From an uncultured Chloroflexia bacterium (GTDB lineage Bacteria > Chloroflexota > Dehalococcoidia > DSTF01 > JALHUB01): DNA of 64,000 nt. The position numbers and the translations under genes were made by a program. Of the stretch, positions 5,034 to 52,947 are shown piece after piece. The notes beneath the pieces are model-generated. The model was not told the origin of the DNA, ran no database searches, and saw only the letters and a program-made list of their open reading frames with translations. Each line of letters starts with the position of its first letter. Position 1 is the stretch's first letter. The stretch covers positions 32,001-96,000 of the forward strand of contig CAVSBT010000017.1 of the NCBI GenBank assembly GCA_963726245.1. Direction: 5' to 3'.

Positions 5034-6588
5034 CTAGTGTCTGAAGTGTCTCATCCCTGTAAATACCATGGCCATGCCATGGTCGTCTGCAACTTTGATC
5101 GCTTCCTCGTCGCGGATCGAGCCGCCGGGCTGGATGATAGCCGTGACGCCTCCCTCGGCGGCCAGCTCCACGCCGTCGGGGAAGGGGAAGAAGGCGTCCG
5201 AGGCCAGCACGGTGCCGCGCGAACGCTCGCCGGCGATGCGCAGGGCCAGGTGCACGCTCGTCACACGGTTCGGCTGGCCCGCGCCCATGCCCACCAGCGC
5301 CTGGTCCTTGACCAGCACTATGGCGTTGGACTTCACGTGCTTGACGGCTCGCCAGGCGAAGCGCAGGTCGCGCAGCTCTCCGGCCGTGGGCTCGCGCTTC
5401 GTGACGGTTCTCAGACTCAGCTCGCTTTCGGGCGCTCGGTCCTCGTCCTGCAAGAGCGCGCCGCCCGACACCTGCCGGTACTGCAGCGCGGCCGCGGACG
5501 TGCCGCCCGTCACCTGGAGCACCCGCAGGTTGCGCTTCTTCTGCAGCAGGGCGAGCGCCTCCTCCTCGTAGCCGGGCGCTACCACCACCTCATAGAAGGT
5601 GCTGCTCATCTCGCGGGCCATCTCCGCCGAAAGGGGCCGGTTGACGGCCACGATGCCGCCGTAGGCCGAGACCGGGTCGCCGGCCAGGGCCCGCCGATAG
5701 GCCTCCGCCTGGTCGGGCTGACTGGCCAGGCCGCAAGGATTGGTGTGCTTCACTACGGCCACCGTGCCCTCCTCGAAGTCAGAGACGGCATGCCAGGCCG
5801 CGTCGGCGTCGACGATGTTGTTGTAGGAGATCTCCTTGCCGTGAAGCTGCTTCGCGCCCGCGATGCCGCCTGACCGGCCGGGCAGCGACTGGTCGATGTA
5901 GAGAGCGGCCTTTTGATGCGGGTTTTCGCCATACCTAAGATTCAAACGCATTCGGAGCCCGATTGTTATGGCCTCCGGCAGCGTTTGGCCCGTTTCCGGC
6001 GATTCTTCACTTTTCTCCCGCGTGCGGAGATAGCCGGCGATGGCGGTATCGTAGAGGGCCACGTGCTGGAAGGCCTTCTGGGCCAGCCGCCGCCGCTCCT
6101 CGAAGGCGACAGCGCCCGCGCGCAGCGAGTCGAGGAGCGGGTCGTAGTCCTCCGGGTCCACCACGACCAGCACGTGGGGGAAGTTCTTGGCGGCCGCCCG
6201 CAGGAGCGTCGGCCCGCCGATGTCGATGTTCTCCAGGGCGTCTTCCAGGCTCGCGTTGGCCCTGGACACCGTCTCCACGAAGGGGTAGAGGTTGCAGACC
6301 ACCAGGTCGATGGTGCGGAGGCCGTGGCTGCGCCAGCTCTTCCATGTGCTCCGGCCGGTCGCGGCGGGCCAGGATGCCGCCGTGCACGCCGGGGTGCAGC
6401 GTCTTCACGCGTCCGTCCAGGATCTCGGGGAAGCCGGTGAGGTCGGAGAGGCTGCAGACGCGGATGCCGGCCGAGGCGAGCGCGGAGTGGGTGCCGCCGG
6501 TGCTGTACACTTCTGCGCCCAGCTCGACCAGGCCGCGGGCGAACTCCACCAGACCCTTCTTGTCAGAAACGCTGAGAATAGCTCGCAT
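5034..6588 (-). CDS. purH: Bifunctional AICAR transformylase/IMP cyclohydrolase (one indel near 6320)
   Basis: [62 protein letters not shown]. Confidence 0.95.
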
Positions 6589-6750
6589 AGCCTAATCCTT
6601 GATGAAACGGCATTCTGTCCCCAAGTGCCGAATGTACTGATCGCGGGTTACAAAGAGCCTGAGCAGTGTGGGGCTTACGGTGGGATGGGGAATGGGTTTC
6701 CTCCGGGGGCGGGGTTGGCTGACGGCGCGCCACTCGCCATCGCAGGTCAG

Positions 6751-9490: not shown

Positions 9491-9780
9491 TATTCTCTCC
9501 TGCCCAGAAGCAGCCCCAACTGCGGGCAGGGAGGCCGGTCCTTCGGCGGGCAGGGCAGATGCCCTGTCTAGGGTCCTCTCCCTGGCGGCCGCCAGGCCCT
9601 CCTCCGCGCCGCACCCTGGCAGCCAGATTGTATCATCCGGCCACGAGGCCGGTCAAACGCGAGCCCTGGTGCCGCCGTAGGCGTCGAGCCGATTGACGCT
9701 GCCTGGGATGCCCCATAGAATTTGGGCTTGACGGCCCCGAACTGTCGGGGCCTATCCATACGAGCTGACAGGAGCAACCG

Positions 9781-12498
9781 ATGACCAGCGAGGCCGGCCC
9801 TCGCGGCGACATCCCCAAGGCCTACGACCCGCGGGCCGTGGAGGAGCGGCTGTACCGCTTCTGGGAGGAGCGCGGCCACTTCACGCCCCGCATAGACCCG
9901 CAGGGACGGCCCTTCACCATCATCATGCCGCCGCCCAACCTGACGGGCGAGCTGCACCTCGGCCACGCCCTGGAAGACACCATCACCGACATCCTCATCC
10001 GCTGGCACCGCATGCAGGGCGATCCCACCCTGTGGCTGCCCGGCATCGACCACGCCGCCATCGCTGTCCACGTGGTGGTGGAGAAGGAGCTGGCCAGGGA
10101 GGGCCTCACCCGCCACGAGATGGGCCGCGAACGCTTCCTGGAGCGCGTGTGGGACTTCGTGAACCGCAACCGCCGGCGCATCTTCGACCAGCACAAGCGG
10201 CTCGGCGCCTCGGCCGACTGGACCCGGGAGCGCTTCACGATGGATGAGGGCTCCCAGCGGGCCGTCCGCACCACCTTCCGCAGGCTCTACGACCAGGGCC
10301 TCATCTACCGGGGCGAGCGCATCATCAACTGGTGCCCGCGCTGCCAGACCGTCCTCTCGGACCTGGAGGTGGAGCACCACGAGCAGCAGGGCCACCTCTG
10401 GTACGTGCGCTATCCCCTTCTGAGCGGCGACGGCTCCCCGGAGGAGGGCCAGTACATCACCATCGCCACGACGCGGCCCGAGACGATAGTGGCCGACACC
10501 GGCATCGCCGTGCACCCCGGCGACGAGCGCTACGAGGCGCTGGTGGGGCGCCGCGCCCTCCTGCCCATCATCGGCCGTGCCATGCCCATCGTGGCCGACG
10601 AGGTGATCGACCCGGCGTTCGGCACCGGCGCCCTCAAGGTGACGCCCGGCCACGACCCCGTCGACTTCGACATCGGGCAGCGCCACGGCCTGCCCATCGT
10701 CAGCGCCATCGCACCGGATGCCACCATGAACGAGGAAGCCGGCCCCTACAAGGGCATGGACCGCGACGAGTGCCGGCGGGCCATCGTGCGCGACCTGGAG
10801 GAGCAGGGCTACCTGGTGAAGACGGAGCCCTACGTCCACTCCGTCGGCCACTGCTACCGCTGCGACAGCGTCGTGGAGCCGCTGGTCAGTCTCCAGTGGT
10901 TCATGCGCATGGAGCCCAGGCGGACTCGCCCGACCGGCCATCGAGGCGGTGAAGGACGGCCGCATCCGCTTCGTGCCGGAGCGCTTCGTGAAGGTCTACC
11001 TGAACTGGATGGAGAACATCCGCGACTGGTGCGTCTCGCGCCAGCTCTGGTGGGGCCATCGCATCCCCGTCTGGTACTGCGCCGACTGCGGCGAGCCAGA
11101 CGCTGCCCCTTCTGCCTGACGCGGGCGATCCCCTGGCGGACCCGACTAGCTGTCAGCACTGCGGGTCCGGCCGCATCGAACAGGACCCGGACACGCTCGA
11201 CACCTGGTTCTCTTCCGCCCTCTGGCCTCACTCCACGCTGGGCTGGCCTGACGACACCGAGGACCTTCGCTACTTCTATCCCACCTCCGTCATGCAGATG
11301 GGGTACGAGATCCTCTTCTTCTGGGGCGCCCGCATGATCATGACGGGGCTCTACAACATGGGCCAGGTCCCGTTTCACACCGTCTACATACATGGCCTCA
11401 TCCGCGACGACGAGGGTCGCAAGATGAGCAAGACGATAGGCAACGTGGTGGACCCGGTCGGGCTCGTCGAGCGCTACGGCGCCGATGCCCTGCGCTACGC
11501 CCTGGCCACGGGCTGCAGCCCCGGCAACGACATGCGCATCTCAGATCAGAAGCTGGAGGCCGGACGCAACTTCGCCAACAAGCTCTGGAACGCCGCCCGC
11601 TTCGTGCTCACCAACCTCGACGGCGCCGGGCTCGAGCGCCCTTCCCTCGACCGGCGGCAGGAGATGCCCCTGGAGGACCGCTGGATCATGTCGCGCCTCC
11701 AGCGGGTGGCGGCAGGCACCGGCCAGCTCCTGGAGCGCTTCGAGCTGGGCGAGGCGGGCCGGCAGCTCCACGACTTCCTCTGGGGCGAGTACTGCGACTG
11801 GTACGTGGAGATGGCCAAGGTGCGGCTACGGGAGGGCGACTCCTCGCCGCTGCCGGTGCTGGTTCACGTGCTGGACAGCAGCCTCCGCCTCCTGCACCCC
11901 TACATGCCCTACGTGACGGAGGAGATTCTGGCAGGCCCTGTCCGGCCACCTGCCGGACCGCGACGCCGAGGCCCTCATCGTGGCGCGCTTCCCGCAGCCC
12001 GACGCGGCCTGGTACGACGACGAGGCGGAGGCGCAGGCCGAGGCCGTCATCGAGGTGGTGCGCGCTATCCGCAACATCCGCTCCGAGCGACGGGTGGAGC
12101 CGGCCCGCTTCGTCGAGGCCCACGTCCAGGCGCCGCGCCTGCGCGCCGCCCTGGAGGCCAGCCGTCCCCTCATCGCCACGCTGGCCCGAGCCGAGCCCCT
12201 GCACATCGTCGGCGAGGAGGCGCGCCTGCCGAGCGAGAACGTGGCGACCGCCGTCCTGGCCGAGGGCCGCGTGGCCCTGCCCCTGGCCGGGCTCTTCGAC
12301 CTGGAGGCGGAGCGCAGCCGCCTCTCCCGCCAGATCAGCGAGCTGGAGGGCGAGGTGGGCCGCCTGGAGTCGCGTCTGGCCGACGAGCGCTTCCGCACCC
12401 GCGCGCCCGCCGCCGTCGTGCGACAGGAGGAGGAGCGGCTGGCCTCAGCCCGCTCCCGCCTGGAGGGCCTGCGCGCCCGCCTGAGCGAGCTGGGGAAG
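9781..12498 (+). CDS. valS: Valine--tRNA ligase (several indels; stop not resolved)
   Basis: [13 protein letters not shown] (HIGH), [32 protein letters not shown]-terminal coiled coil ending RARLSELG. Confidence 0.95.
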
Positions 12499-12513
12499 GC
12501 CCGATGCCTCGAA

Positions 12514-15500
12514 TCAGCCAATAGGCCACTTCGGGATTGCCGCGTCGATCTCCGCCATGAGCCGCATGGTCTCATTGATGGCGACGACCATCTTCTCGTA
12601 GTGCTCGAGGTCCTCGTTGGAGAGCGTGCGGCGCGCGACGATCCTTCAGCCACTTCTGGCAGGGCTGGTAGCCGCCGACCCAGAACTCCCACACGCTCGC
12701 TGCGGTACGCCCTCGAAGTACTGTCCGCGAACGCCCGCCGTTGGGTTGCCCTTGTTGATGTAGACGCGGCCCGACCTCGACCGGCTTGCCGTCCTCCGGG
12801 CTTGGCTCGCCCGGCGCGACGTAGCGGGGGAAGCCGGGGTCCACGATGTTCGGGCCGGCGTACGGGGTAGCGGGTGATCGACTTCGCCAGCGTTGGCGAC
12901 TCCAACAGATGCAGCCCGACAAGCTCGCGCCCCTTCTCGACCAGTGTCCGGAAGAGGTCCAGGTTTGACGTGAGTGGGATACGCGGGAAGTCCGCCTTCA
13001 AGAACTGCGCGTAGCGGGTGCGATAGGTGGGCGAGTGCAGGACGGCGTAGATGTAGTGGAAGACGTCCTCCGGGCCGAAGGTGGCCTTGAGGTCGCCCTG
13101 TACCTTCTGAGACGAAGGTGAGACCGATACGTCCGGCGATGTCGTGCGACGAACTTCGGCTCGAAGTTGGGGCGGCGTCCATCCCTGCCCTCGGCCAGGG
13201 GGAGGCCGTAGGGAGCGCAGCCTGAGTGTCGACAGCCCCTTGGAGGCGGCGGGTACAAGTAGAGGGGGAAGACGAAACCATTGTTCAAGGTCTTCGGAGA
13301 CATGCAGCATGACTTCGGTGACTCGCCGGGTAACCTGACGCATGCCGGAATGTCTCGCCCTCGGTCAAACGAGTAGGTGACGAGTGCAAGGTTATTGCCC
13401 TGAAGCAGGTGTTGCATGACTCTCAGGCGGCGGTGCACAGCGACGTTCGAGTTGAAGACTGTCCATCGAACAATCAAGTGGCCGATAGAGAACCTGGCAG
13501 CAATTCGTTGCATCGCAGCCGCCGGATGCGCATTTCCTTCTTTGCGCGGCTCGTAGTTCCACTGAGACTGACGTGCAAAGTGCGAAGCAGCTTGACGGGC
13601 TTCGGCTTCGGTGCCCGTGGCGAGCAATGCCTCGCACTTTCGCGATTGCCTCTTCTCTAGTCCAACGAGATCGCAAACTGATCGTGAGTAGTGACGATTC
13701 CAGGCGCGGGGTCGCCGTTCTGGTTCATGACGCTTGTGGAATGCTACAGCCTTGTCAGTACTCCTCGAACAGGGACGTGTCCTGCGGGACGAAAAGATCC
13801 CGTCGGGGTTCCATGCGGGAAAGGTGGCCCACTTGGTAGGTCGATACGTCGGTATCGATGGAGCGCCAGCGTATTTGTTTTCACGCGAGCCCCACGAATC
13901 TCGCAGTGATGGACCGGCGGCGATATCCGCGCTTTGCCGGCTCCTTAACGAAGATGACCGATGGCCACCCCCTGCTGAATGTCGAAGACGTTCTGGTCTA
14001 GCTGAGCCGTCCGGGCAGCGCTCCTTCTTCTTGGAGTTGCCGTGCAGGTCGAGGACGTAGATGTCGTTGAAGGCGTTGCATCAACTGCTGGCGCATCCCT
14101 CGGAAAGTGGGGTTGTCGAGGTAGCTGTGGTTGGTGATGAAGGCCAGGATGCCGGCACCCGGTCCGCTCGATCCGCCACTGGCCCAAGCGGATGAACTTG
14201 ACGTAGTCGTCCTGGAGCCACTTCGGTTGCGCTGCCCAGCGGCTTGCCGTCCACTCGGTAGTAGTCCCGTCTGTAGTCCATCGATGCAAGGCTGACGCCG
14301 TCGATCCAGGTCGCCCTTGTTGGCCGAGTGGCCGGAGTAAGGCGGATTGCCCAGGACCACCATGATCGGCAGGTCGCGTTTGATCTCGGCGGCGGCGTTG
14401 GCCTCGTCGGCGATGAACCGGCGCGCCGAGCAGCAGGCTCGGCCTGCTTCGAGCGGCCTCCTCCAGAGTGTTCGTCAGGTAGACGCCCAGCCGGTCGTCG
14501 CCGGCGAAGTCGTAGGCCCAGTCCTTGCGCTGCCCCTCCGGCAGGTCCTGGCCCGCCAGTTGCATGCCGAGCTTGAGGTGCGCCACGGCGTAGGGGGCCA
14601 TCAGCAGCTCGAAGCCGAAGAGCCGCGGCAGGAGGTGCTCGCGCACGTAGCCCGACCACATACCCGCGTTGCCCTGCTTGCATGAACTGCGTCGCGGATC
14701 GAGGTCGACGACCGGCGTAGAGGAAGGTGCCGGTGCCGCAGGCCGGGTCGAGGATCAGGACGCGGGGGACGGTCTCCTGTCGCGTTCCTTGCCGTCCTCG
14801 TCGATGGCGCTCGTAGGTCACCGTGCCGGTGTCGGCCAGGCCGTCGGCGCAGGCCGAAGCGCGTCTTGAGCAGGTGGTCGACGGAGCGGACGATGTACGA
14901 CACGACGGGCTCGGGCGTGAAGTAGACGCCGCGCGCTCTCGCGCAGCTTGGGGTCGTAGGCGGCGAGAAAGGTCTCGTAGAAGTGGACGATCGGGTCCTC
15001 TCTGCCGCGTGCGCTTGCCGAACTCGGCGAGCACCGCCGTCCATGTCCGTGCTCGGTCGAGCAGCTGCGCCAGGTCGTCGACGAAGCCGACGATAGGGCT
15101 CATCGTCAAGGTCGGGGCCGGTGATCTGTGTCGAAGAGCTTGCGCAGGAACGGGTTGGTCTTCGGAATAGTCGCGGCGGCGTCCTGACGCCGGAAGCGGG
15201 CCGGGCCGTTGTGGTTCACCCGCGCTGCGAACAGCCCGTACGCTATCGTCTGCGAGAACATGTCCGCAAAGGCTTCGTGCAGGAGAGATCGGGGATGAGG
15301 ACTTCGGCGAATGCCTCGTGCAGGCCGCGCAACGTGGCCGACGCCGTCTTGTTCTGAAACGCTTGCACGAGTGATGTCGCGGATGAGGTGCGTTAGCCGT
15401 GCCAGGCGCTCGGCAAGCTCCTTGGGCTTAGAGATAGGCTGAGGCTTGTGGTCGAGGAAGCCGCGCAGGAGCGCCTCGGCCGCTTGGGCACCGTTCTTCT

Positions 15501-16699: not shown

Positions 16700-18064
16700 C
16701 TACCCCGCGCAGAAGATCGAGCAGTCGGGGCCGTGGATGCGCTCCGCCTCGGCGATGGCCTCCTCGACGGTCGCGGTGGGGGTGAAGCCGACGTGCCGCG
16801 GCACCGCCGGGTCCTCGGCGCCCGCCACGAAGACGCGACCGGCGTGTCGCAGGCGCTTCAGGGGGTGCGTGGCCAGGATGCCGTGGACGGGGTGGAAGGC
16901 GTAGCCCCGCCGGTACAGCTCGATGTAGTCACTTCGCGTGGCGAACTCGCCCAGGAAGCGCTCGCTGATCTCGTCGGGGTCCAGGGATTCGGTCAGCACC
17001 CGGTCCCACACCTCCGGGTACGAGGGGTGGTGCTCCATGTCCCACTGCTCGGGACAGGGCGTGGTGAGGATCACCGAGCACCCCGGCTTCCCCAGCGCCT
17101 CGATGTAGCCGCCCAGGTAGCCCAGGCCCGATGAGAGCAGCGTCAGGATGGGGTTCATTTTGGAGAAGGTGGCGTAGGGGCTCCAGTTGGGCACGCCGTA
17201 GATGATGACGTCGGCCCGCTCGGCGGCCGTCCGGCGCGGCGGGTTCTGGGCGGCCTGCACCTCCAGGGCGCGCGCCCGCGTCTCCGAGACGGTGCCGGCC
17301 CAGATGTGCGCTATCGTCATCGCGTCGGCCAGCAGCGTCTCCACCTTGAAGATGCGCCGACCGATGGACCTCTCCAGGTGCTCGCCCATCTCGTCGAAGA
17401 CGCCGTGCATGCGGTTGCCCCGCACCGACATCGACATGCCGTCCGGGGTGTGCGTCCAGCGGATGGAGCGCCAGGTGGAGAGCCCCACGCAGACCGACTT
17501 CCAGCCGCCGCTGAAGCCCAGCATGACGCCGGCGTTGACGTAGACCGTCAGGTCTGAGTCGGCGACCAGGCGGTGCACCTCCACGTCGTAGCCGCTGGCC
17601 GTCGTGCCGAGGTAGACCAGGTTCTCCGCGTCCTCGGCGTCGTGGCAGGCGAGCCGCGGCCCGAAGCGCTGGACCAGCTCCTCGCCCAGGATGCTCGACA
17701 GCTCTTCGCGCGTCCACTTGCGGTGGAGGGCGTTGGCGCAGACCAGGTTGACGTTCTCCTCCGGGACGCCGGCCTCCGCCAGCTCGGCGAGGATGGCCTC
17801 GATGACCAGGCGGCGGACCGGCCCGAAGGAGGGTATCGTCGGGTCGTCGAAGGCGATGAGCACGCGGGCGCCCGGGCGCACCAGCTCTCGGACGCGCGGC
17901 ATGCCCAGCGGCTTCGCCAGGGCGGCCAGGACGGCCTCCGACTGGTCCGCGACCGGCTGGAGGCCGCTGGCCAGCCCGCGAGAGGGGAAGCGCGTCCGGT
18001 CCGGCAGGCTGACCTCGACGGTGGTGTCGCCGTAGGGGAGGGTTCTCTTGATCATCGTGCCCAA
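16700..18064 (-). CDS. LarA/lactate racemase-domain protein
   Basis: LIAFDDPT, CANALHRK, CHDAED, GFSGGWKS resemble the LarA N-terminal domain. Confidence 0.7.
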   Translation of the reverse strand: MGTMIKRTLPYGDTTVEVSLPDRTRFPSRGLASGLQPVADQSEAVLAALAKPLGMPRVRELVRPGARVLIAFDDPTIPSFGPVRRLVIEAILAELAEAGVPEENVNLVCANALHRKWTREELSSILGEELVQRFGPRLACHDAEDAENLVYLGTTASGYDVEVHRLVADSDLTVYVNAGVMLGFSGGWKSVCVGLSTWRSIRWTHTPDGMSMSVRGNRMHGVFDEMGEHLERSIGRRIFKVETLLADAMTIAHIWAGTVSETRARALEVQAAQNPPRRTAAERADVIIYGVPNWSPYATFSKMNPILTLLSSGLGYLGGYIEALGKPGCSVILTTPCPEQWDMEHHPSYPEVWDRVLTESLDPDEISERFLGEFATRSDYIELYRRGYAFHPVHGILATHPLKRLRHAGRVFVAGAEDPAVPRHVGFTPTATVEEAIAEAERIHGPDCSIFCAG

Positions 18065-18108
18065 CCCATATCAGACGGTACCACAGCGCGCAAGGGCCGG
18101 TTGGCATG

Positions 18109-18143
18109 GTAGGGGGCGTCCGCCTCTGGACGGACGCCCCTAC
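18109..18143. repeat. GTAG-type REP palindrome
   Basis: gtagggggcgtccg-cctctgga-cggacgcccctac. Confidence 0.7.
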
Positions 18144-18900
18144 TCCGACCCACAGCACCTGGCTCTTGAGGATCTCCCGGGGCATCGCCTCCAGGGCTGT
18201 CCTGACCCGGGCGGGCCACGGGCAGCAGCCGCTTCATCGTCCGGTCCTCCAGCCGCCGCAGGTAGGGGCAGCGCTTGAGGAAGGCGCCCAGCGTGTGGCG
18301 GTCCCCGCCCAGGAAGACGTAGTCCAGCTCCCGCTCGACAGGCCCGAAATGGGCCTGGACCGCCTCGCAGGCCTTGTCGAACATCTCCCGAATCTGCTTC
18401 TCGCGGATGCGGACGAATCGCGTCGCCGACTGGCCCCCGGCCTTGTGCCGGCCCTTAACGAACCTGTGGCCGCTCTTGGAATCGATCAGGCGCTCCCCCT
18501 CGAAGAGGCCGACGGCGTAGCGACCGAGCCGCAGCAGGACGACGCCCACGGTGCGCGGCTCGCTGAGCAGCGCGCGCAGAGGGGAGGTGTCGCATCCGGC
18601 CCGGCAGCCGGCATCGCGGAGGGGGAACGGAGGCAGCACCACCAGCCGGCGGGCGTCGCTCCAAAAGAAGACGGCGCCCGTCTCCGAGTCGAGTTCGCCG
18701 GCCAGGGCGTCGATCTCCTCGAGCCATGCGGCTTGACCGGGGGCAAGGTTGTCGTCGGGCGAGGGCCGTGCCGCCGGCGGCTGGCCCGCCTGCCGGCGAG
18801 GCAGGTACACGGTGAGCCAGTCGCCGGGGGAGGCCTCCAGGTCCGCCAGCAGCGCCTCCAGCCGGCGCCGCGTCAGCTGCTCCCGTCTTGTGATTTCCAC
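18140..18900 (-). CDS. acVLRF1-family (Vms1/aeRF1-like) release factor / peptidyl-tRNA hydrolase; 3' end uncertain because of indels
   Basis: VVLLRLGRYAVGLFEG...VKGRHKAGGQSATRFVRIREKQ...FLGGDR. Confidence 0.8.
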
Positions 18901-19139
18901 GACGGTTCCTCAGCCTCAGCATGCTCGCCTGCAAACACTGCCCATTGTGCCACACAAAGGCGGCGGAAGGGGGTGCAGCCGGGCCAGACAGATGCCGATG
19001 CTTTATCGGGAAAGCGTTAGGGGATTGAGGGCAAGGATGCATGGCTGCTCCCGATAGTGGCAAGAAGGCATTTAGGGTTTCATCAGCTAGTGCAGATGAT
19101 CAGGCGTCAGTTCGGGCCCCAGCGGGCGGAGGGAAGGCG

Positions 19140-19325
19140 ATGATCTGGCTGAAGGGCTGCCCCAAGTGTCATGGAGACATGCACTATGATCCCCTGGTTG
19201 AGGAGTACGTGTGCTTGCAGTGCGGTCTGGCGGTGGAGAGGCCGCCGGAAGAGTCCCTGTCGGAGGCTTTGACCGCCGGCGCGTCGCCGGTCGAGCCACT
19301 GCGCCTCGACCCGAAGAGCCCCTAG
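19140..19325 (+). CDS. Small zinc-ribbon protein (61 aa)
   Basis: GGAGGGAAGG RBS; MIWLKGCPKCHGD...YVCLQCG with two CxxC; followed by a terminator. Confidence 0.75.
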   Translation: MIWLKGCPKCHGDMHYDPLVEEYVCLQCGLAVERPPEESLSEALTAGASPVEPLRLDPKSP

Positions 19326-19346
19326 CACACCCTCCGGGTTGAACGA

Positions 19347-19380
19347 GGGGACCCCGTCCGACAGGACGGGGTCCCCTTTT
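19347..19380 (+). terminator. Intrinsic terminator
   Basis: ggggaccccgtcc-gaca-ggacggggtcccc followed by tttt. Confidence 0.8.
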
Positions 19381-19464
19381 CGCGCACGGAGTTGAAGCTC
19401 CGTCCTTACGCTTGATTTCCCCGCCGTCTGCAGATTTTCCCTCGCCAGGGTCTCCCCGACGCGT

Positions 19465-19476
19465 GAACACGCGTGC
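19465..19476. promoter_or_regulatory. Candidate LexA (GAAC-N4-GTTC type) box, one mismatch
   Basis: GAACacgcGTGC immediately upstream of the nurA-like gene. Confidence 0.3.
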
Positions 19477-19500
19477 TAACATGCCACCAGCGCATGTAAC

Positions 19501-20599
19501 TTGCGCCTGGAGGGCAGCTTGGTAGCTGAGCAGTCACCCCACGTCGATCTCAGGGAGCTGGCCCGGCGATACGACGCCCGGCCCCTGGACGACCGCCCCT
19601 ACGAGCCGCTTCCCTTGGCTGACCAGGCTCTCGACCAGGACGAGGAGGCGCTGAAGGCGCGCCTGCGCCAGCTCTCCTACGAGCTGCCGGCCAGCGAGTG
19701 GCGGCCCATCGCCTGCACAGGGGAGGGCGGCGGGCCCGCCGACGCGCCGCGCCGCTTCATCGACGGCAGCGTCTTCTCCCGCAGCGTGGCCGCTCTCTCC
19801 GTCGAGGGCCGCCGGCGGCCGGCCGTGCTCGCCTGCCTGGGCGCCCTCGGCCTCCACCTGGAGGGAGGACGCCTCGTGCGGCCCCCGGAGGGCTTCCGGC
19901 TGCGCACCGTCCTCTGCCTGCTGAGCAACGGCGTGCCCCAGGAGGACCTGCGCGACGATGGCCGAGGGGCTGGCTTCGCTAGGGATTGATCTGGTCGTCT
20001 CGGAGACGGCGGAGCTGGCCGCCGACTTCGAGGTGCTGCGACGGCGCACCTGGGACCTGGCGAAGGAGCGCATGGAGGAGGCGGAGAAAGAGGTCCTCTT
20101 CGCGGCGCCGGACGTGCCCGCGGTGGTGGACGGCCTGCTGGAGCGGCGGCTGGTCACCGTCGCCTCGCAGGGCATGGCGGCGGTGGGCGTCGTGAAGCGC
20201 CAGATGCGGCGCTACCTGCCCGACTCCCACCTCAACCTGCTCTACGACCTCGCCGCGGGCCAGCGCACGCCCGCCTTCCTTCTCGAGACGGAGCACGCCA
20301 CCGTCGTGAGCTGGTACCTGCGCCTCTCGTCCGCCGACGGGCTGTCCCCCGGCTACGGCATCGTCCGGCTGGCCGTCCCCCAGGACTACCTGGAGCGGCG
20401 CTTCCCGGCGCCCGCAGAGCGCTGGAACCAGCTTTCGGCGCTCTCCGACTGGCTGCGGGCGCTGCGCTGTCGAGAGGGGAGCTACCCCCGGGCCGGCGTC
20501 TCCCTGGAACCGATCGTCCGCGTGGAGGACGAGCTGCACGCCCTGCTGCCGGACATCCGGCAGGTGGCGGCCCGGCTGCAACGGGCCCTGGGCATCTAA
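19501..20599 (+). CDS. nurA: NurA-like nuclease (RNase H fold; one indel near 19960)
   Basis: RFIDGS, VVDGLL, AVGVVK, SWYLRL, GIVRL, LEPIVRVEDEL pattern; directly upstream of a HerA ATPase. Confidence 0.65.
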
Positions 20600-20630
20600 G
20601 GTCCGCCCTACGGCGGACAGGAGGGTGGAG

Positions 20631-22532
20631 ATGGACGAGTCGAAAGACGACGGCCGCCACGACGGCGCCGGCTGAGCCCGCCGAAGCCGGCGAGACTCCC
20701 GCCGGTCTGCGTCCGATAGGCCGGGTGGCGGCGCCGCGGGGCTCCGAGGCGACGACAGAGGCTTTCCACTTCTGGGTCCCCGAGGACCGGCTGGTCGAGA
20801 AGACGCAGCTCGTCCACGTGGAGAGCCCCACCGGAGGCCGGGACGTGCACTTCTACGGCCTGGTGACGGAGGTCTTCCGCCGCTCCCGCCGCAACGACAT
20901 GCTGGAGGAGTCGGACCGCTTCGACGGCCGGCCCGAGGAGCAGGTGCCCCTGGAGAGCCGCGGCGTCACCTACGCCTCCGTCCGCGTGCTGGCCACGGAG
21001 CCGAGCGTCTTCACGCCGCCGCGCGAGGAGAGCGTGGTCTACCCGGCGGGCGAGCCGGAGGCCCGCATCGCCTACGGCGTGGGCGACATGGAGAAGCCCG
21101 TGGTCGTCGGCCTGGTGCGCAACGGCGGCGAGGCCGACGCCGGGCCCGCCTACGTGGACCTGGACTACCTGCTCGGCGCCAAGGGTGGGCACCTGAACGT
21201 GGCCGGCATCGCCGGCGTGGGCACCAAGTCCAGCTTCCTGACCATCGCCCTCAGCCAGGTGCTGCGCTACTGCCGCCGCCACGCCGAGGAGCACCCGGAG
21301 GACCCGGAGAAGCCGCAGGTGCGCGCCGTCATCCTCAACGTCAAGGGCTTTGACCTCTTCTGGCTCGACCACTGGTCGAGGGCCTTCAGCGAGGAGGACC
21401 GGCGGATGTGGGAGGCCATGGGCTGGGGCGAGCCCTCGCCCATGGACGTGCTCGCCTTCTTCGCCCCTCAGCAGCCCGGCAGCGACGAGCTGGCGGCGCC
21501 CGTGGGACGGAGCGGCGTCCGCCCCTATAGCTGGTCGCTGGAGGACGTCATCCGCGACAACCTCTTCACCTACCTCTTCAGCGACAGCGACCGCGAGGAC
21601 GACAACTTCGCCCTCCTCCTGGCCGACATGGAGCGGCTCCTGGCCCGCGAGTGGCGCCAGAACGACGGCACGCCCATGCGCGAGCTGCGCCGCGACGCCC
21701 CGGCCCGCACCTTCCAGGAGCTCTTCGACTGGTTCGAGCACGGCCTGGCCCGCGGCGAGGGCCGCGAAGGCGATGAGCCCCCGCGCCGGTCGGACCTCAC
21801 CTTCGAACGGCTCCAGACGGTGCACCACGCGGGCACGCTGCGCCGCTTCTACCGCCGCCTGCGGCGCATCGTCTACGAGAGCGCCGGCATCTTCCGCATG
21901 GAGGGCGGCGGCAGCCATCCCCTGGACATCAGCGCCCTGGAGTCGGGTCGGCCCATCGTGGTGGACATCCAGAGCCTGCCCGACCGTCACCTCCAGCGCT
22001 TCGTCGTGGCGGCGCTCCTGAAGCAGGCCGTGGAGCAGCAGACCGGCGCCCGGCGCCCTGCCCGGCATGCACTACCTCTTCGTCCTCGACGAGCTCAACC
22101 GCTTCGCCCCCAAGGGTCACACCGACCCCATCACCCAGCTCATCGAGACGGTGGCGGCGGAGCTGCGCTCGCGGGGGGTGATCCTCCTGGGGGCGCAGCA
22201 GCAGGCCTCGCTGGTCTCGCCGCGGGTGGTGGAGAACGCCTCGGTGCGCGTCCTGGGGCGCACCGGCGGCCACGAGCTGCGACAGGACGTCTTCAGCTTC
22301 CTGCCGGAGGAGCTGCGCGACTACGTGGAGCAGCTCGGCGCCAGCGACAAGGTGCTGCACCTGCCCAGCTTCCGCCAGCCCATGCACGTGCGCGTTCCCC
22401 GGCCGCCCTGGGCCATGCGCAGGCAGGAAGCCTCCACCGAGCCGCCGGAGCTTCTGCGGGAGCGGGGCGCGGTCGCCGTGCCGCAGCCCCGTCCGCCGCC
22501 TGCCGTCGCGTCCCTACGACGAGCTGCCCTGA
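20631..22532 (+). CDS. herA: HerA-like ATPase/DNA translocase (indels)
   Basis: N-terminal HAS-barrel-like region, divergent Walker A HLNVAGIAGVGTKS, ILNVKG, Walker B FVLDELNRFAP, ELRSRGVILLGAQQ. Confidence 0.8.
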
Positions 22533-22533
22533 G

Positions 22534-23801
22534 ATGCGCCTGCTACATACGAGCGACTGGCACCTGGGCGCCCGCCTCGGCAACCAGGACCGCCTGCCCG
22601 ACCAGCTCGAGCGGCTGGAGGAGATCTGCCGCTACCTGGACGAGAACGAGGTGGACGTGCTCCTGGTGGCGGGCGACGTCTTCGACGAGCACCGCTCGGA
22701 GGCGCTGGCCCGCATCATCGCCCGACTGGCCCGGCTGCTCAAGCCCCGCATCGAGGCCGGCATGTGGGCGGTGTTCATCGCCGGCAACCACGACCGCGAG
22801 CACGTCTTCCCTCTCATCCGGGGCCTTCAAGACCTGCTGACGGCCGAAAGCAGCCTGCCTGCCGGACAGGCGGGCCCGCGGGTCGTCTTCGCCGAGCGGC
22901 CGGCGCTGGTGCCGGTCACCGCCCGGTCGGGCGAGCAGGTGCAGCTCATGCTCCTGCCCTACCCAACGCCCACCCGCTACGAGCTGCCCGACGAACGGCT
23001 GGCCCAGCCCTGACGCCAAGCGGCAGAAGCTGGCCGATGCCCTGCGGGAGCGCATCGGCGGGCTAGCCCAGGAGGCCCGCCTGACGCCCGGCGTGCCGGT
23101 CGTCCTCTGCGGCCACTTCCTGGTGCGCGGCGTGCGCGAGGGCTTCTACCAGCTCAGCGAGCAGGAGGACGTGCCCGTCGAGCCCGCCGACCTGCCCTCG
23201 TACGCCTACATCGCCCTGGGCCACATCCACAAGCCGCAGACGGTGGGCGCGCCCCACATCCGCTACTGCGGCAGCCTGGAGCGCATGGACCGCGGCGAGG
23301 CGGACGACCGCAAGATGGTCCTGCTCGCCGACGTGGGCCGCTCGGGCCTGCGCGACGTGGTGGAGCTGCCCCTCAACGCTACCCCCTTCGCCCACGTGAC
23401 GGCAGCCAGTGAAGACGACCTGGAGCGGGCGGCGAGGGAGCTGTCGGAGCCGGAACGGACGCTGGTCTCGCTGACCCTGGACCTCTCGCGCCGACGAGCC
23501 GGTGGGGCCCCTCCTGGCCCGCGCCCGCGCCCTCTTCCCGCGGCTCTGGGCGCCGCCCGAGATCCGGCTCGCGGAGACGGCCGCTCCCCCGGCGCCGCGC
23601 GCCATCGACCGGCGCGACGTGGCGGGCACGGTGCGGTCATATCTGCAGGAGGCTCTGGCGGGCGACGCCGACCGCGACGAGCTGCTGCGGCTGGCCGAGG
23701 AGCTGCTCGCCGACCTGCCTGTCGGACAGGCGGGGCCCATAGGGGCGGTTCGCGAACCGCCCCTACCCAGCCGAGCCGAGACCGTCCGGGAGACGCCATG
23801 A
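22534..23801 (+). CDS. sbcD: Mre11/SbcD nuclease (indels)
   Basis: MRLLHTSDWHLG, LVAGDVFD, IAGNHD, LCGHF, YIALGHIHKPQ, RYCGS. Confidence 0.9.
22853..22875. repeat. In-frame palindromic repeat in sbcD (encodes LPAGQAG)
   Basis: gcctgcctgccggacaggcgggc; related copies at 23714-23734 and 18785-18805. Confidence 0.65.
23740..23766. repeat. REP palindrome inside the sbcD 3' end
   Basis: taggggcggttcgcgaaccgcccctac, identical to the intergenic copy at 29679-29705. Confidence 0.8.
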
Positions 23802-26800
23802 TCCCCGTCCGGGTGCAGGTCCGCAACTTCCTCACCTACGGCGAGGCCGACGACGGCGGCCCCATCGAGTTCGACTTCGAGGGGTCGCGGCTCTGGAGCA
23901 TCTCCGGCAACAACGGCTCCGGCAAGAGCGCCGTCTTCGACGCCATCACCTACGCCCTCTTCGGCCGCCACCGGGGCGGCGCCACCGGCGACGGCCGCCT
24001 GATCCGCAAAGGCGCCCGCCAGTGCGAGGCCACCTTCGAGTTCCAGGCCAACGGCCACCTCTACCGCGTCCGGCGCACGGTGGCCCGGCGGCACGGGAAA
24101 GCGACAGCAGGAGGCCAAGGAACGCCAGGCCGCCCGCTTCGACCCCGACAGCGGCGAGTGGGTGCCGGTGCCGGCCACCGACTCCGATGCCGCCCTGGGG
24201 CGCTGGGTCCAGGAGCTGCTGGGCCTCGGCTACGACACCTTCGTCACCTCTGTCCTCCTGCGCCAGGGAGAGAGCGACCGCTTCATCACCGCCGGCAACG
24301 CCGAGCGCTTCGACATCCTCCGGCAACTGCTGGGCCTCCAGGCCTACCAGCAGCTCGAGGAGCGCGCCCGTGCCCGCGCCCGCGAGGCCCGAGCGTCCGC
24401 CGAGGCCCTGGACCGGCACCTGGCCGCCACCCCGGCCTTCGACCCGGCCGACCTGGAAGCGGCGGAGGCCGCGCTGGCGGCGTCGGAGGCGGGCCTGCGC
24501 GACTCTCAAGCCGCCTGCACGCAGGCCCAGGCCGTCTTGAGCGACGCCCGCGCCTTCGCCGAGCTGGCCGCGCACATCGAGGAGTGCCGGCGCCGGCTGG
24601 CGGAGGTCGAGAGCCTCCTGGCCGACGCCGAAGGCATCCGAGCCCGCTACCAGGAGTGGCAGGACATCGAGGCGGCCGTCCCCGCCCTGGAGGGGGCGCT
24701 CCGGGAGCTGCGGGCGGCCGCCGTCGCCGAGGCAGAGGCGGAGGAGGCGCGACGGGCCGCCCTCGCCGTCGACCTGGGGGCGCTGGAGGAGGCGGCGCAG
24801 CTCGCGAACGCGGCGGCGGAGGACGCCGAGCGGGCCGTCGGCGTCGCTGACGAGAGCCTGAACGCCTGCCGCCAATCGCTGGCGGCGCTCCAGCCCGCCC
24901 TGCGCGGCATCGACGAGCTGGCGCAGGCCCGCGGCCAGGCCGAACGGCTGAGGGCCGACATCGATGGGCTGTCGCGCGAGCTGGAGTCGATGCCCGCCGT
25001 GCGCGAGCAGCACGAGCGGCTGTCCGCCATCGCCCGGGGATTGCCCGCCCTCGAGGCGCTGGTCGCCGCCCGCAGGGGCCTGGAAGAGGCGGAGGCCGCC
25101 GCCGCCGAGGCCGGCTCTCTGGACGGCCGGCGGCAGGAGGTGGAGCGCCTCGCCCACGAGGTGAGCGCCGCCGAGACGCGCACCCGCCAGGCGGAGCGAC
25201 GCCTTCGGGCGGCCGACCAGCAGCTGGCGCGGGCGGAGGCAGCGCTCGAGCAGGCCCGCGGGCAGCTAGCCGCCCGCCAGGAGGCCCGCGACGAGGCCGT
25301 GTGCTCCCGCTGCGGACAGCCCGTCGACCCGGAGCACATCGCGCGGGAGCTGCGGGACGCCGAGGCGGCGGTCGCTGAGGCCGGCGAGCGCGTCGCCGAA
25401 GCCCAGGCCGGCCACGAGCAGGCGCACGGCGAGGAGGAGGCGGCTCGAGAGGCGCTGGCGGCGTCGCAGGCGGCGGAGCAGGAGGCCCGTGACCGCCTGC
25501 GAGAGGCGGAGCGGCGCGCCGAGCAGGCGGCCCAGGCCCGCTCGCGCCTCGACGAAGCCGTGGCCGCGGCCTCGGACCTGCCGGAAGAGCTGCGGCGCGT
25601 CGCCGCCGGGGCACCGCCGGCGGAGGCCGAACGGGCGCTGGCCGATGCCCGCGCGCAGGCGTCGGCGCTCCCCCAGGCCACCGCCGATCTGAACCGGCTG
25701 CTGGGGCTGAAGGGGCAGGCAGAGGCCCTGGGCAAGGCCCTGCAAGAGCAGCAGGAGCGCATCGCCGAGCTGGCGGCGCGCTATCCGCCCCAGGCGGAGC
25801 AGCAGGTCCGGGCCGAAGCCGAGCGGCTGCGTACCGAGGAGCCCCGGCTCGAGGCCGCGGCCGCGGCAGGCGCGCCGGGGCTGGAAGGAGGCCCGCGACT
25901 CGGCGGAGGCGGCCCGAGGACGGCTGGAGGAAGGCCGCCTGCGCCGCCAGCAGCTCGAGGGCGACGCCGCCCGCCTCGGGCAGGGGGCTTCGGGTTTGCG
26001 CTCCCAGGCCGCCGTCCGCCTCCAGCCGGTTCGTGAGGACTGGCGCACGCGGGCGCTGGCGCTGGACGGCGCGCTCCTGACGGAGCTGCTGCGCCGCCGC
26101 GACGAGCTGGCCGGCGTCGACGAGCAGCACCAGGCGCTGGCGCGGGCCGACGAAGAGCGGCGCGAGCAGGAGGCCCGCCGTCGTGAGCTGGACCGCAGCG
26201 TGAGCCGCATCCCCCAGGAGCACCGCCTGCCCGTCGTCGAGGCGGAGCGGGCCCTGGAGGAGAGGACGGCCGACATGCAGGCCCGCCAGTCGGAGCGCGA
26301 TGAGGCCTTTCGTCGCGTCCAGGCGCTGGAGCACGCCCGCGAGCAACGACAGCGGTTCGAGGGCGCCCTGCGGGAGGCGCAGCGGCTGCGCGTCCGCTTC
26401 GGGCGGCTGGCCGAGCTACTGGGTCGCGGCGGCCTCCAGGCCCGCCTGGTGGACGAGGCCCTGGAGGGCATCACATACCTGGCCAACGAGACCCTGGCCC
26501 GCGTCTCCGGCGGGCAGCTCCGGCTTCAGTTGTCGCGGGAGAGCCGCCGGGCGGCTGGCCAGGCCGACGCCCGAAGCAACGAGGAGATCGTAATCCGTGC
26601 CCGCGACCTCGCCTCCGCCGACGAGCCGCTGGACACGCAGTTCCTCTCGGGCAGCCAGAGGTTCCGCACCTCCGTGGCCATCGCCGCCGCCATCGGCCAG
26701 TACGTGGCCGGCTCTCAGGGGAGCGCCATCCGCTCGCTGATCATCGACGAGGGCTTCGGGAGCCTGGATGCGCAGGGCAGACAGGAGATGGTCGAGGAGC

Positions 26801-26937
26801 TGCGGAACCTGTCGCAGTTCATGGACCGCATCATCGTCGTCAGCCACCAGGAGGACTTCCAGGACCGCACGCTCTTCCCGACGGGCTTCATCCTGCGCAA
26901 GGAGGGCCAGCGCAGCACCGTCGAGCGGTTCGTGTAG
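23798..26937 (+). CDS. sbcC: Rad50/SbcC SMC-like ATPase (indels)
   Basis: ATGA overlap with sbcD; Walker A GNNGSGKS, Q-loop LLRQGE, coiled coil with zinc hook CSRC, signature LSGSQ, Walker B IIDEGFGSLD, IIVVSHQ. Confidence 0.92.
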
Positions 26938-26995
26938 GGCTGGGAGCGGTGGAGTCTGTCGCCAAACTTTTCCTAACATTTTCTGTCCAAAGGGC

Positions 26996-27023
26996 TTGAC
27001 AAAGCTCACAAGGGAAGTAGAAT
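26996..27023 (+). promoter_or_regulatory. Strong sigma70-type promoter
   Basis: TTGACA-16 nt-TAGAAT in an AT-richer patch. Confidence 0.7.
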
Positions 27024-27029
27024 ACAGGC

Positions 27030-27490
27030 GAAGGATAACCAGTTGTCGATTTCGCGTTACTGGTATCCCGCATCGATTAGCCGGTCTTAGTTATCACGAA
27101 TCCTCGTTCACTTTTGTCGCTTCGAACAAAGAGTGTTGGGGGCGGCCGACAAGCGAGGAATCATGGCAAGGGCCAGGGGAACCAGAACCGCCTTGGACAG
27201 GAGATCTCTGAGGACTCCCATTCAGGAGGACTCGGCGTCCGTCGCCGCAGGCGGGGAACTGAGCCACCAGCCAATGGAGGGCGGCGTGGACGTCAGTCGG
27301 GACCGGGCCTGCGGTGTGTGACGGGCGATCGGAAAACGGGGACGGGGGTACCCCGCCGGGCGGCTGGCCAGGATTGCCAGTCCTGCCCCGCGGGCCCGGT
27401 CGATAGTCAATCGCTGGGGCAGCGCAGCAACTGACCCCTACAAGCAATAGCCCCTGACGCCTTGTGGCGATTCAAGGGCCGCCCCCTCAC
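27030..27490 (+). ncRNA. Candidate large structured non-coding RNA of unknown class
   Basis: Follows the promoter; several stems (27033-27068, 27096-27165, 27236-27327, 27356-27399 and two near 27416-27478) and a perfect 10-bp long-range pairing 27138-27147/27477-27486; G-U pairs favour the + strand. Confidence 0.5.
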
Positions 27491-27528
27491 TAGTGGCGCG
27501 CACACCCTTCCCTCTGAAGTGTGCGTCC

Positions 27529-27604
27529 TGGCGCGCCCGGAGGGATTCGAACCCCCGACCCTCGGTTCCGAAGACCGATGCTCTATCCGCTGAGCTACGA
27601 GCGC
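27529..27604 (-). tRNA. tRNA-Arg (anticodon UCG)
   Basis: GCGCTCG acceptor stem, anticodon arm TCGGT-CT TCG GA-ACCGA, GGTTCGAATCC T-loop, encoded CCA. Confidence 0.95.
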
Positions 27605-27701
27605 GCCCCATCGCTGCGCAGACGGGCGTCTCGCTGCGCCCGCCCATCTCGCGCCAGTCTATCATAGCCCCTCGAACGCCTACAACGAGCCGGGCGCCTC
27701 A

Positions 27702-51601: not shown

Positions 51602-51655
51602 CGCCGTACTTGGACTTCGCCTTATCATCCGTGCTCCGCGTAGAATAGGGGCGTC

Positions 51656-52790: not shown

Positions 52791-52866
52791 GGGCCCTTAG
52801 CTCAGTTGGCAGAGCGCCGGACTTTTAATCCGGGTGTCCTGGGTTCGAGCCCCAGAGGGCCCACCA
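52791..52866 (+). tRNA. tRNA-Lys (anticodon UUU)
   Basis: GGGCCCT acceptor stem, CCGGA-CT TTT AA-TCCGG, GGTTCGAGCCC, encoded CCA. Confidence 0.97.
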
Positions 52867-52947
52867 AACCGCCTTTTTGAATCTGATTTCGGGGAAGGAG
52901 CGCTTCGTCGGCTGAAAGATAACGACGAAACATACAAAGGAGCTTCA

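Follow-up and report, generated by a model that had tools for sequence, protein, structure and literature searches.

In Pyrococcus and Sulfolobus, Mre11, Rad50, HerA and NurA are encoded in a single transcription unit, mre11-rad50-herA-nurA (PMC3326311). According to the same report, archaeal HerA-NurA has a destruction mode, in which both DNA strands are degraded, and a resection mode, in which one strand is; the choice between them was proposed to lie with Mre11-Rad50, and the pair was suggested to have a protective function like that of RecBCD. In bacteria, NurA-HerA of Deinococcus radiodurans (PDB 7F6D; HerA also 7WRW and 7WRX) performs translocation-coupled 5' digestion that leaves 3' tails in vitro, and residues D53, K201 and R309 of its nuclease (DrNurA) are each required, their mutation abolishing nuclease activity (both as reported in PMC9960219). 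Whether SbcCD is linked with HerA-NurA in this species was left open by Cheng et al. 2015 (PMC4663267). In Oceanithermus profundus, SbcD and SbcC homologs are encoded downstream of hepA (= herA), the second gene of a nurA-hepA duet; Blesa et al. 2017 (PMC5448004) reported the arrangement as a curiosity of a single genus and attributed it to recruitment of sbcCD. Here we analyze a 64,000-nt stretch of contig CAVSBT010000017.1 (assembly GCA_963726245.1) from an uncultured Chloroflexia bacterium, hereafter the window, in which nurA, herA, sbcD and sbcC lie side by side. The cluster is one unannotated copy of a little-annotated operon that is found across many bacterial phyla. It provides a bacterial setting for the question, raised for D. 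radiodurans in PMC4663267, whether SbcCD and HerA-NurA cooperate outside archaea.

Organization of the four-gene cluster

The cluster occupies positions 19519-26937 of the window, on the + strand, and its genes are co-directional and tightly coupled. None of the four is a single open frame in the window, and the uninterrupted proteins P0121-P0124 (356, 635, 409 and 1045 aa) of the closest related locus, L001, served as read-through proxies. This locus belongs to a Dehalococcoidia metagenome-assembled genome (MAG); its HerA is 95% identical to that of the window, and the DNA identity is 90%. The features of the cluster are as follows, with insertions given relative to L001.

19519-20599, + strand: nurA, bacterial-type NurA nuclease, ~356 aa when read through; an insertion near 19956 splits it between two frames
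20625-22532, + strand: herA, bacterial HerA/HepA-type hexameric translocase ATPase, ~635 aa when read through; insertions near 20667, 22054 and 22483
22534-23801, + strand: sbcD, Mre11-family phosphoesterase, ~409 aa when read through; insertions near 22999 and 23490
23798-26937, + strand: sbcC, Rad50-family ABC ATPase with a long coiled coil, ~1045 aa when read through; insertions near 24090 and 25867
25302-25313, + strand: Rad50/SbcC zinc-hook CxxC motif (CSRC), in frame in the window, roughly in the middle of the coiled coil and also present in the intact proxy P0124

An earlier reading of the window (the sequence-only reading) had named the same four genes, and the NurA fold, profile matches and motifs described below bear these identities out. 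It had also described the catalytic motifs and the CSRC hook as intact; indeed, every motif that was looked for is present in the window. For nurA it had given a start at 19501, where an in-frame TTG does occur. The likelier start is the TTG at 19519, which has GGAGG 5 nt upstream; the stop is TAA at 20597-20599. The gap to herA is 25-31 nt and contains another GGAGG, herA starting at either GTG 20625 or ATG 20631. The two remaining junctions are exactly as first described. The herA stop (TGA, 22530-22532) and the sbcD start (ATG, 22534) are 1 nt apart, and the sbcD stop (TGA, 23799-23801) overlaps the sbcC start (ATG, 23798) as ATGA.

NurA and HerA resemble the Deinococcus pair

Routine annotation misses NurA and HerA at this locus. 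In public records the first gene is a 'hypothetical protein' and the second an 'ATP-binding protein' or 'HerA-like ATPase'. Neither protein matched a model in Pfam or NCBIfam, whether as window pieces (Pfam E<=0.01) or as intact proxies (Pfam E<=1), and the models that gave no match include those of the archaeal families, NurA (PF09376) and HerA (DUF87/HerA_C).

The identity of HerA emerged at the profile level. A search with the longest window piece returned intact homologs of 610-645 aa with up to 93% identity. A HerA profile (A1) built from the related loci matched D. radiodurans HerA (7f6d_B) with E=3.8e-67, profile positions 26-595 aligning with chain positions 11-603. An unusual Walker A motif (G-x-x-G-V-x-T-K-[ST]-S) and a DELN Walker B motif align between the two; in the window they read GIAGVGTKSS (at 21205) and FVLDELNRFAP (at 22079).

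For NurA the sequence signal is weaker and the evidence is mainly structural. The NurA profile (A2) matched D. radiodurans NurA (7f6d_H) with E=4.3e-13 over the C-terminal half only; Thermotoga TM1739 was matched as well. An AlphaFold (AF2) model of P0121, built from 40 sequences, reached a pLDDT of 90.7 and a pTM of 0.88. In a Foldseek search with this model the top match was DrNurA (7f6d_G; E=1e-14, TM 0.57/0.61, 21% identity), followed by TM1739 (1zup, 7.7e-11), Sulfolobus NurA (SsoNurA, 2ygk, 1.3e-6) and TdpAB (8wfd_G, 3e-6, TM ~0.43). The last of these (8WFD/8WET), a weaker match than DrNurA, is a bacterial HerA-like/NurA-like pair of the tdpABC phosphorothioation cluster (PMC12914056). 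Gene 1 thus has the NurA fold, and therefore the sequence-only reading, which depended on that fold, is not overturned on this point. The characteristic NurA motifs are found in the window at 19756 (FIDGS), 20123 (VVDGLL), 20186 (GVVKRQ) and 20483 (YPRAGVS). Three residues, D79, K223 and R321, are invariant in the 40 sequences and are all present in the window. K223 and R321 align to DrNurA K201 and R309, and D79 corresponds to D53 by its position in motif I, with no significant alignment there.

The D. radiodurans pair is thus the closest solved relative of both proteins. It shares with them the position of nurA directly upstream of herA, the deviant Walker A, the DELN Walker B and the D/K/R residues of NurA. 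As judged from these sequence and model comparisons, the NurA and HerA of the cluster belong to the Deinococcus-type lineage of bacteria and not to that of archaea.

SbcD, SbcC and comparison with archaeal operons

The SbcD proxy (P0123) matched the NCBIfam model TIGR00619 (sbcd) with 108.7 bits against a cut-off of 77.65 and also passed the cut-off of Pfam Metallophos, while archaeal Mre11 models scored 26-44 bits only. Its best sequence matches in PDB are E. coli SbcD structures (4lty and 6s6v, ~2e-19). Phosphoesterase motifs I-V (DWHLG, GDVFD, GNHD, CGHF and GHIH) are located between 22555 and 23230. By these sequence criteria, the protein is closest to bacterial SbcD.

The SbcC proxy (P0124) exceeded the cut-offs of Pfam AAA_23 and SbcC_Walker_B; with NCBIfam TIGR00618 (sbcc) it scored 152 bits, under the cut-off of 478.5. 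PDB matches include T. maritima Rad50 (3qf7, 2.6e-17) and E. coli SbcC (6s6v_C, 1.9e-13). Since bacterial and archaeal Rad50 heads were matched about equally, the type of SbcC is ambiguous. The protein has a split ABC head and a long coiled coil, with Walker A at 23906, the Q-loop at 24258, the CSRCG hook at 25302, the signature at 26644, Walker B/D-loop at 26740 and the H-loop at 26836. Compared with the E. coli SbcCD and T. maritima Mre11-Rad50 complexes (6S6V, 3QG5/3QF7), the pair has the same phosphoesterase and ABC motifs, CxxC-hooked coiled coil and coupled sbcD-sbcC genes. It differs in being co-inherited with nurA-herA and in the low score of SbcC against the sbcc model.

The sequence-only reading had called the operon 'archaeal-style'. 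This is apt insofar as all four families are present in one co-directional cluster, but the proteins themselves argue otherwise. NurA and HerA are Deinococcus-type: the window NurA is structurally nearer to DrNurA than to SsoNurA, and the archaeal Pfam models miss both proteins. SbcD is bacterial, being nearer to E. coli SbcD than to archaeal Mre11. Gene orders in archaea also differ from nurA-herA-sbcD-sbcC. As for Deinococcus, the remark that nurA-herA is not known to be linked to sbcCD agrees with PMC4663267. In the window, sbcD follows directly after herA.

Distribution, gene order and co-inheritance

To see how widely the arrangement occurs, we scanned one genome per species (185,579 species genomes) with two strict peptide patterns. 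The scan gave 153 confirmed stretches, and 79 related loci were returned. The family is small, as only 243 of 1.84 billion representatives at 50% identity matched at E<=1e-30. According to record titles, the 79 loci belong to Chloroflexota (30), Planctomycetota (19), Cyanobacteria (7), Armatimonadota (6), Abditibacteriota, Dormibacterota and Actinomycetota (3 each), Myxococcota and Pseudomonadota-labelled MAGs (2 each), and 'Deltaproteobacteria', Binatia, Acidobacteriota and an unclassified record (1 locus each). Carriers with complete or near-complete genomes include Limnoglobus roseus (NZ_CP042425.1), Thermogemmatispora tikiterensis, Calothrix sp. PCC 7103 and Zavarzinella formosa.

Gene order was counted in the 58 loci that have at least 1.5 kb upstream and at least 3 kb downstream of herA. 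The order nurA-herA-sbcD-sbcC is present in 51 of them, with median gaps of 16, 28 and -4 nt, and loci with this order are found in about ten phyla. The position of nurA upstream of herA is conserved in 65 of the 72 loci with room for it. Seven loci depart from the four-gene order: L045, L057 and L074 have nurA and herA with no sbcCD match, L046 and L070 have a match to neither nurA nor sbcCD, and L048 and L073 have no detectable NurA. Because 51/58 loci have intact homologs of all four genes in this order, the cluster is not a chance juxtaposition. The sequence-only reading had presented the arrangement as unusual in bacteria. In this family it is the rule, and by the description in PMC5448004 the same four-gene idea is present in O. 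profundus, a member of a different phylum (Deinococcota).

A phylogenetic tree of HerA was constructed for 73 of the 79 loci; in the other six the HerA open reading frame (ORF) is truncated or could not be resolved. The tree reveals three well-supported clades. Clade A consists of Chloroflexota only. Clade B, to which the window belongs, is a mixture of Chloroflexota, Binatia-like bacteria, Actinomycetota and Dormibacterota. Clade C comprises 51 rows. Overall, phylum labels are strongly clustered on the tree (16 changes vs 41.7 in shuffles). The same three clades appear as single splits in the FastTree trees of SbcD (64 rows; support 100/91/92) and NurA (65 rows; support 100/98/99). Since the NurA and SbcD trees recover the HerA clades, the four genes travel together.

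In clade B, HerA ends in a conserved tail with the consensus RRLxPRxxxExP after PPWAMR (~22490-22529 in the window). This tail could be a candidate partner-binding peptide.

In freely accessible papers, supplements aside, we found no description of how widely this cluster occurs, of its regulators or of its proximity to defence islands. Both the conserved four-gene architecture of the family and its association with defence islands are under-documented.

Frame breaks in the window

The + strand coding signal extends throughout 19.5-26.9 kb, and within this region the frame of highest third-position G+C shifts repeatedly without accompanying stops or starts. DNA alignment with L001 attributes this to eight 1-nt insertions at the positions listed above (one in nurA, three in herA, two in sbcD and two in sbcC); no frame-breaking deletions, in-frame stops or larger lesions were found in the four genes. 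According to tblastn, the window pieces are mostly 76-94% identical to the L001 proteins (the two nurA pieces 87% and 73% to P0121), except for a high-scoring segment pair of 34 residues in the herA tail (56%). Breaks of the same type are seen elsewhere in the window. The essential gene valS (9769-12867) runs through frames 1>2>0>1 in four pieces separated by three +1 shifts. Other split genes are fabF (447-1941), an epimerase gene (1994-2827), purH (5037-6591) and a hydrolase gene (51644-52634).

Eight frame breaks in 7.4 kb, together with a public record that holds the broken 762-aa ORF of the window on a 214-kb contig, might suggest a decaying pseudogene cluster, with genuine frameshifts and an operon no longer functional in its host. 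We rejected this explanation as very improbable. All eight breaks are +1 insertions unaccompanied by lesions of any other type, and the pieces, apart from the herA tail, retain high identity to intact proteins. Their G+C content at third codon positions (GC3, 0.88-0.93) is within the range of other genes, and valS, fabF and purH are broken in the same way. Because such +1-type splits are shared with essential genes, the breaks are attributed to the assembly and not to decay; they are most likely errors of the deposited sequence, the operon itself being intact. The pattern points to systematic single-base insertion errors in the assembly at ~1 per kb, and therefore any 'pseudogene' call on this contig is unsafe.

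Genes neighbouring the cluster

The window has a housekeeping setting, with purH, purM, purF and valS upstream of the cluster and tRNA-Arg, glycosylase, trmO and dapB genes downstream. Two further upstream neighbours are listed here, the restriction-modification gene being the exception to this setting.

18055-18909, - strand: acVLRF1, Actinobacteria/Chloroflexi-type VLRF1 release-factor homolog, divergent from nurA and upstream of it; syntenic in L001 and L007
12870-15932 (3' limit approximate), - strand: Type IIG/ISP restriction-modification gene in at least four frame pieces; PADLOC PDLC03610, Pfam Type_ISP_C

The pieces of the restriction gene match PDLC03610 (REase_MTase_IIG) with E=3e-26, 1e-24, 2e-20 and 9e-16 and together cover profile positions 3-975 of 1096. 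Given the insertion errors of the contig, the gene is probably intact in reality. It is located three genes from nurA, with genes for a methyltransferase, a LarA-N protein and acVLRF1 in between, and is convergent with valS.

For the whole family, we asked how often defence genes are found close to the cluster. To this end, the ORFs flanking the cluster at up to 5 kb (428 ORFs from 73 loci) were scanned with PADLOC (PADLOC-DB 2.0); six more loci had no flank ORF. A strong match was defined as a single-model (hidden Markov model) PADLOC match at E<=1e-30. Generic Ser/Thr kinases (L074 and one in L047) and PolA (L018) were dropped, L047 still being counted for its SAVED-peptidase match. Strong matches were found in 29/73 loci (0.40), a fraction of single-model matches that carries no system-level calls and no matched random-gene background. 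By clade, the loci with a strong defence neighbour are distributed as follows.

Clade A: 0/14 loci
Clade B (the clade of the window): 5/12 loci
Clade C: 24/47 loci

The differences from clade A are significant in Fisher tests for both clade C (p=0.0004) and clade B (p=0.012), three of the 14 clade-A loci having been assigned by identity and taxonomy and not by the tree. Complete Wadjet sets (JetA+JetB+JetC) are near the cluster in L008, L028, L034 and L042, and single Jet matches in L031 and L064. CRISPR-Cas genes are present in L017, L025, L037, L038, L054 and L065. The remaining matches include BREX, type I/II restriction-modification, CBASS cyclase, pAgo, SspBC, DpdF/QueC, PsyrTA, AbiEii, HEC-01 and PDC-S37. 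For comparison, a 2022 preprint by Millman nominates candidate systems at a defence-score threshold of 0.4. The fraction observed here equals that value, but it was measured over 5 kb, whereas the threshold refers to +-10 genes. Since the matches are to single models and have no matched background, the count is only suggestive.

The proteins of the cluster themselves are not recognized as defence proteins. The NurA, HerA and SbcD proxies had no PADLOC match at E<=1e-10, and the NurA and HerA window pieces had none at E<=1. SbcC matched only the generic SMC-like LmuB (6.7e-33) and mad3.

Two recurrent neighbours were observed in addition. In three Chloroflexota loci a type I Wadjet JetABC set starts within ~100 nt downstream of sbcC (L028:10106-15555, L034:16153-21563 and L042:15804-21338), a recurrent pairing of two SMC/Rad50-type systems. 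In three other loci a second HerA of the defence-associated type lies a few kb from the cluster (L055:3429-6692, L014:3741-5489 and L023:2639-4432; PADLOC HerA ~1e-56 to 1e-60). The second HerA of L055 matches Pfam DUF87 (PF01935) and is preceded by a Pfam-detectable NurA (PF09376), so that two different NurA/HerA-type modules stand side by side.

Putative regulatory genes upstream of nurA

In 43 loci of clade C, three extra co-directional genes are located directly upstream of nurA (e.g. L018:6652-8782, L025:6912-8871 and L074:7210-8908). They code for an extracytoplasmic function (ECF) sigma-70 factor, an uncharacterised protein of ~200 aa and an M78 (IrrE/ImmA/CapP-like) peptidase. For the ~200-aa protein, ESM Atlas returned only 'hypothetical protein' clusters and a sub-threshold helix-turn-helix (HTH) lead at 0.88. 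The M78 peptidases match PADLOC CapP and PD-Lambda-2_B. The trio resembles a switch that would control the operon in response to damage or infection. No remnants of the three genes were detected in the window, the best tblastn match having E=0.25.

An M78 peptidase gene is also found directly upstream of nurA in two clade-B loci, L010:8060-8785 and L012:7238-8353. In L012 the peptidase is fused to an HTH domain (PADLOC PD-Lambda-2_B, 1.5e-31), and an integrase and a type II restriction-modification pair are nearby.

Possible function of the operon

The operon encodes a self-contained machine composed of two known modules that are inherited together. We favour the reading, to which we assign a probability of about 0.5, that it serves as an accessory RecBCD-like module for degradation or resection of DNA ends, with two outcomes, and is not an indispensable core pathway. 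In the proposed mechanism, SbcCD, with its ATPase and zinc-hooked coiled coils, would recognise free or blocked ends of double-stranded DNA, nick them and trim them. The HerA hexamer would thread the duplex through its central channel into the NurA dimer, where the strands would be separated and cut. This would either leave a long 3' tail for use by RecA or degrade the linear DNA completely. Such a machine could both resect breaks in the bacterium's own chromosome and degrade linear DNA that is foreign or cut by restriction enzymes. How SbcCD would pass ends on to HerA-NurA, what would decide between the outcomes and what the operon does in vivo are inferred, the functional model being the cooperation of the four archaeal proteins in vitro (PMC3326311). 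RecBCD, with which HerA-NurA was compared in PMC3326311, is a functional analog only and shares no homology; it is likewise an end-dependent helicase-nuclease that destroys linear DNA or makes a recombinogenic tail. The four-gene module differs from it in combining a ring translocase with a separate end-recognition complex. We know of no Chi-like switch for this module.

Several observations suggest the accessory character. Knocking out nurA and herA together was reported to raise the resistance of D. radiodurans to UV and mitomycin C ~10-fold (PMC9960219), the family is small and sparse, phyla are intermixed in clade B, defence genes are frequent neighbours, and in the window the Type IIG gene is close to nurA. 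Other observations weigh against our reading. Thermus thermophilus hepA mutants were described as UV- and heat-sensitive and impaired in competence and DNA donation (PMC5448004), which suggests that HepA acts in repair in T. thermophilus. The nearest relatives of the window (L001, L002, L007 and L011) have housekeeping neighbours, which together with the acVLRF1 synteny fits stable vertical inheritance, and clade A, consisting entirely of Chloroflexota, has no defence neighbour in 14 loci.

The housekeeping neighbours, the acVLRF1 synteny and the lack of defence neighbours in clade A also speak for a different explanation, in which the operon would be the main double-strand-break resection machine of its hosts, acting in housekeeping recombination in place of RecBCD, AddAB or AdnAB, as its counterparts do in thermophilic archaea, with the defence neighbours being coincidental. 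The homology to DrNurA-HerA, a maker of recombinogenic 3' tails according to PMC9960219, and the archaeal precedent of four proteins in one operon (PMC3326311) agree with this explanation, as does the clustering of phylum labels on the HerA tree. The IrrE-like peptidase of the sister clade could then be a DNA-damage switch. A scan of 66 ORFs of the window gave no RecBCD or AddAB domain, but a stretch of 64 kb is little to judge from. We nevertheless consider a core role somewhat unlikely. It is hard to reconcile with the gain of resistance in the D. radiodurans double knock-out, with a family that is rare and patchy, with the five loci out of 58 in which herA has no sbcCD match (in three of them nurA is kept) and with the defence neighbours in about half of the clade-C loci and 5/12 clade-B loci.

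At the other extreme, the operon might be a dedicated anti-phage or anti-plasmid system with no significant role in chromosomal repair. SbcCD would sense invading linear ends and HerA-NurA would destroy them; in the sister clade, the ECF sigma factor and the CapP/IrrE-like protease would switch the system on. The sequence-only reading had raised an uncharacterised defence system as one option. The defence neighbours and the Type IIG gene of the window give it genuine, though indirect, support, and on such sequence-based grounds a dedicated defence role is plausible. The neighbourhood fraction equals the value used for nominating candidates, with the difference in scale noted above, and the neighbours include three-gene Wadjet sets, CRISPR-Cas, BREX, restriction-modification, CBASS, pAgo, Ssp, Dpd and PsyrTA. 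The upstream peptidases match defence families, NurA resembles the nuclease of TdpAB, and HerA ATPases have been reported to act in the Sir2-HerA defence system. However, none of the four proteins matches a known defence family, save for the generic SMC-like matches of SbcC, and the four-gene form has no discriminator of self and non-self. Moreover, the nearest relatives of the window have housekeeping neighbours, clade A has no defence neighbours, and the 29/73 count is without a matched control. We therefore regard an exclusively defensive role as unlikely.

A further proposal, which we consider possible but less likely than not, is that the family represents an unrecognised, widely distributed bacterial immune module against free-ended DNA such as phage genomes, linear plasmids and restriction fragments. 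The seven-gene form of clade C would then be turned on by its sigma factor, its ~200-aa protein as a candidate anti-sigma factor and its M78 protease in response to single-stranded or damaged DNA, and the four-gene form of the window would be an unregulated core acting downstream of the adjacent Type IIG enzyme. The frequent proximity to Wadjet, CRISPR-Cas, BREX and restriction systems raises the possibility that Mre11-Rad50 in combination with a ring-translocase nuclease is used in immunity.

Composition and other features of the window

The sequence-only reading had also seen an accessory position in the proximity of the cluster to a tRNA gene. This gene lies ~600 nt downstream of sbcC.

27532-27604, - strand: tRNA-Arg(TCG); Rfam 68.3 bits, ARAGORN in agreement

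The proposal did not stand, as a tRNA gene, 7 kb from nurA, is found in only 1 of the 12 clade-B loci and its proximity is incidental. An island integrated at the tRNA was also rejected, the tRNA neighbour not being conserved and the cluster having no att-like flanking repeats; the repeats detected around it are imperfect (61-91% identity), GC-rich and located within or overlapping coding sequence. Likewise, composition does not support recent transfer. The overall G+C of the cluster (0.72-0.78) is above that of its flanks in a window of ~69% G+C, but its GC3 is within the range of other genes.

ARAGORN additionally reported a 95-nt tRNA-Cys at 20519-20613 (- strand), within the 3' end of nurA. 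This call is most probably spurious, since Rfam at the gathering threshold gives only tRNA-Arg. A scan for promoters and terminators at 18800-27700 was uninformative, with a single promoter-like site located downstream of sbcC and terminator-like sites as frequent as in shuffled sequence.

A nitronate monooxygenase (NMO) gene directly follows sbcC in L001 (L001:8753-9829). The window has none at the corresponding site (26938-26943), and its NMO-family gene is located at 52801-54054, 26 kb from the cluster.

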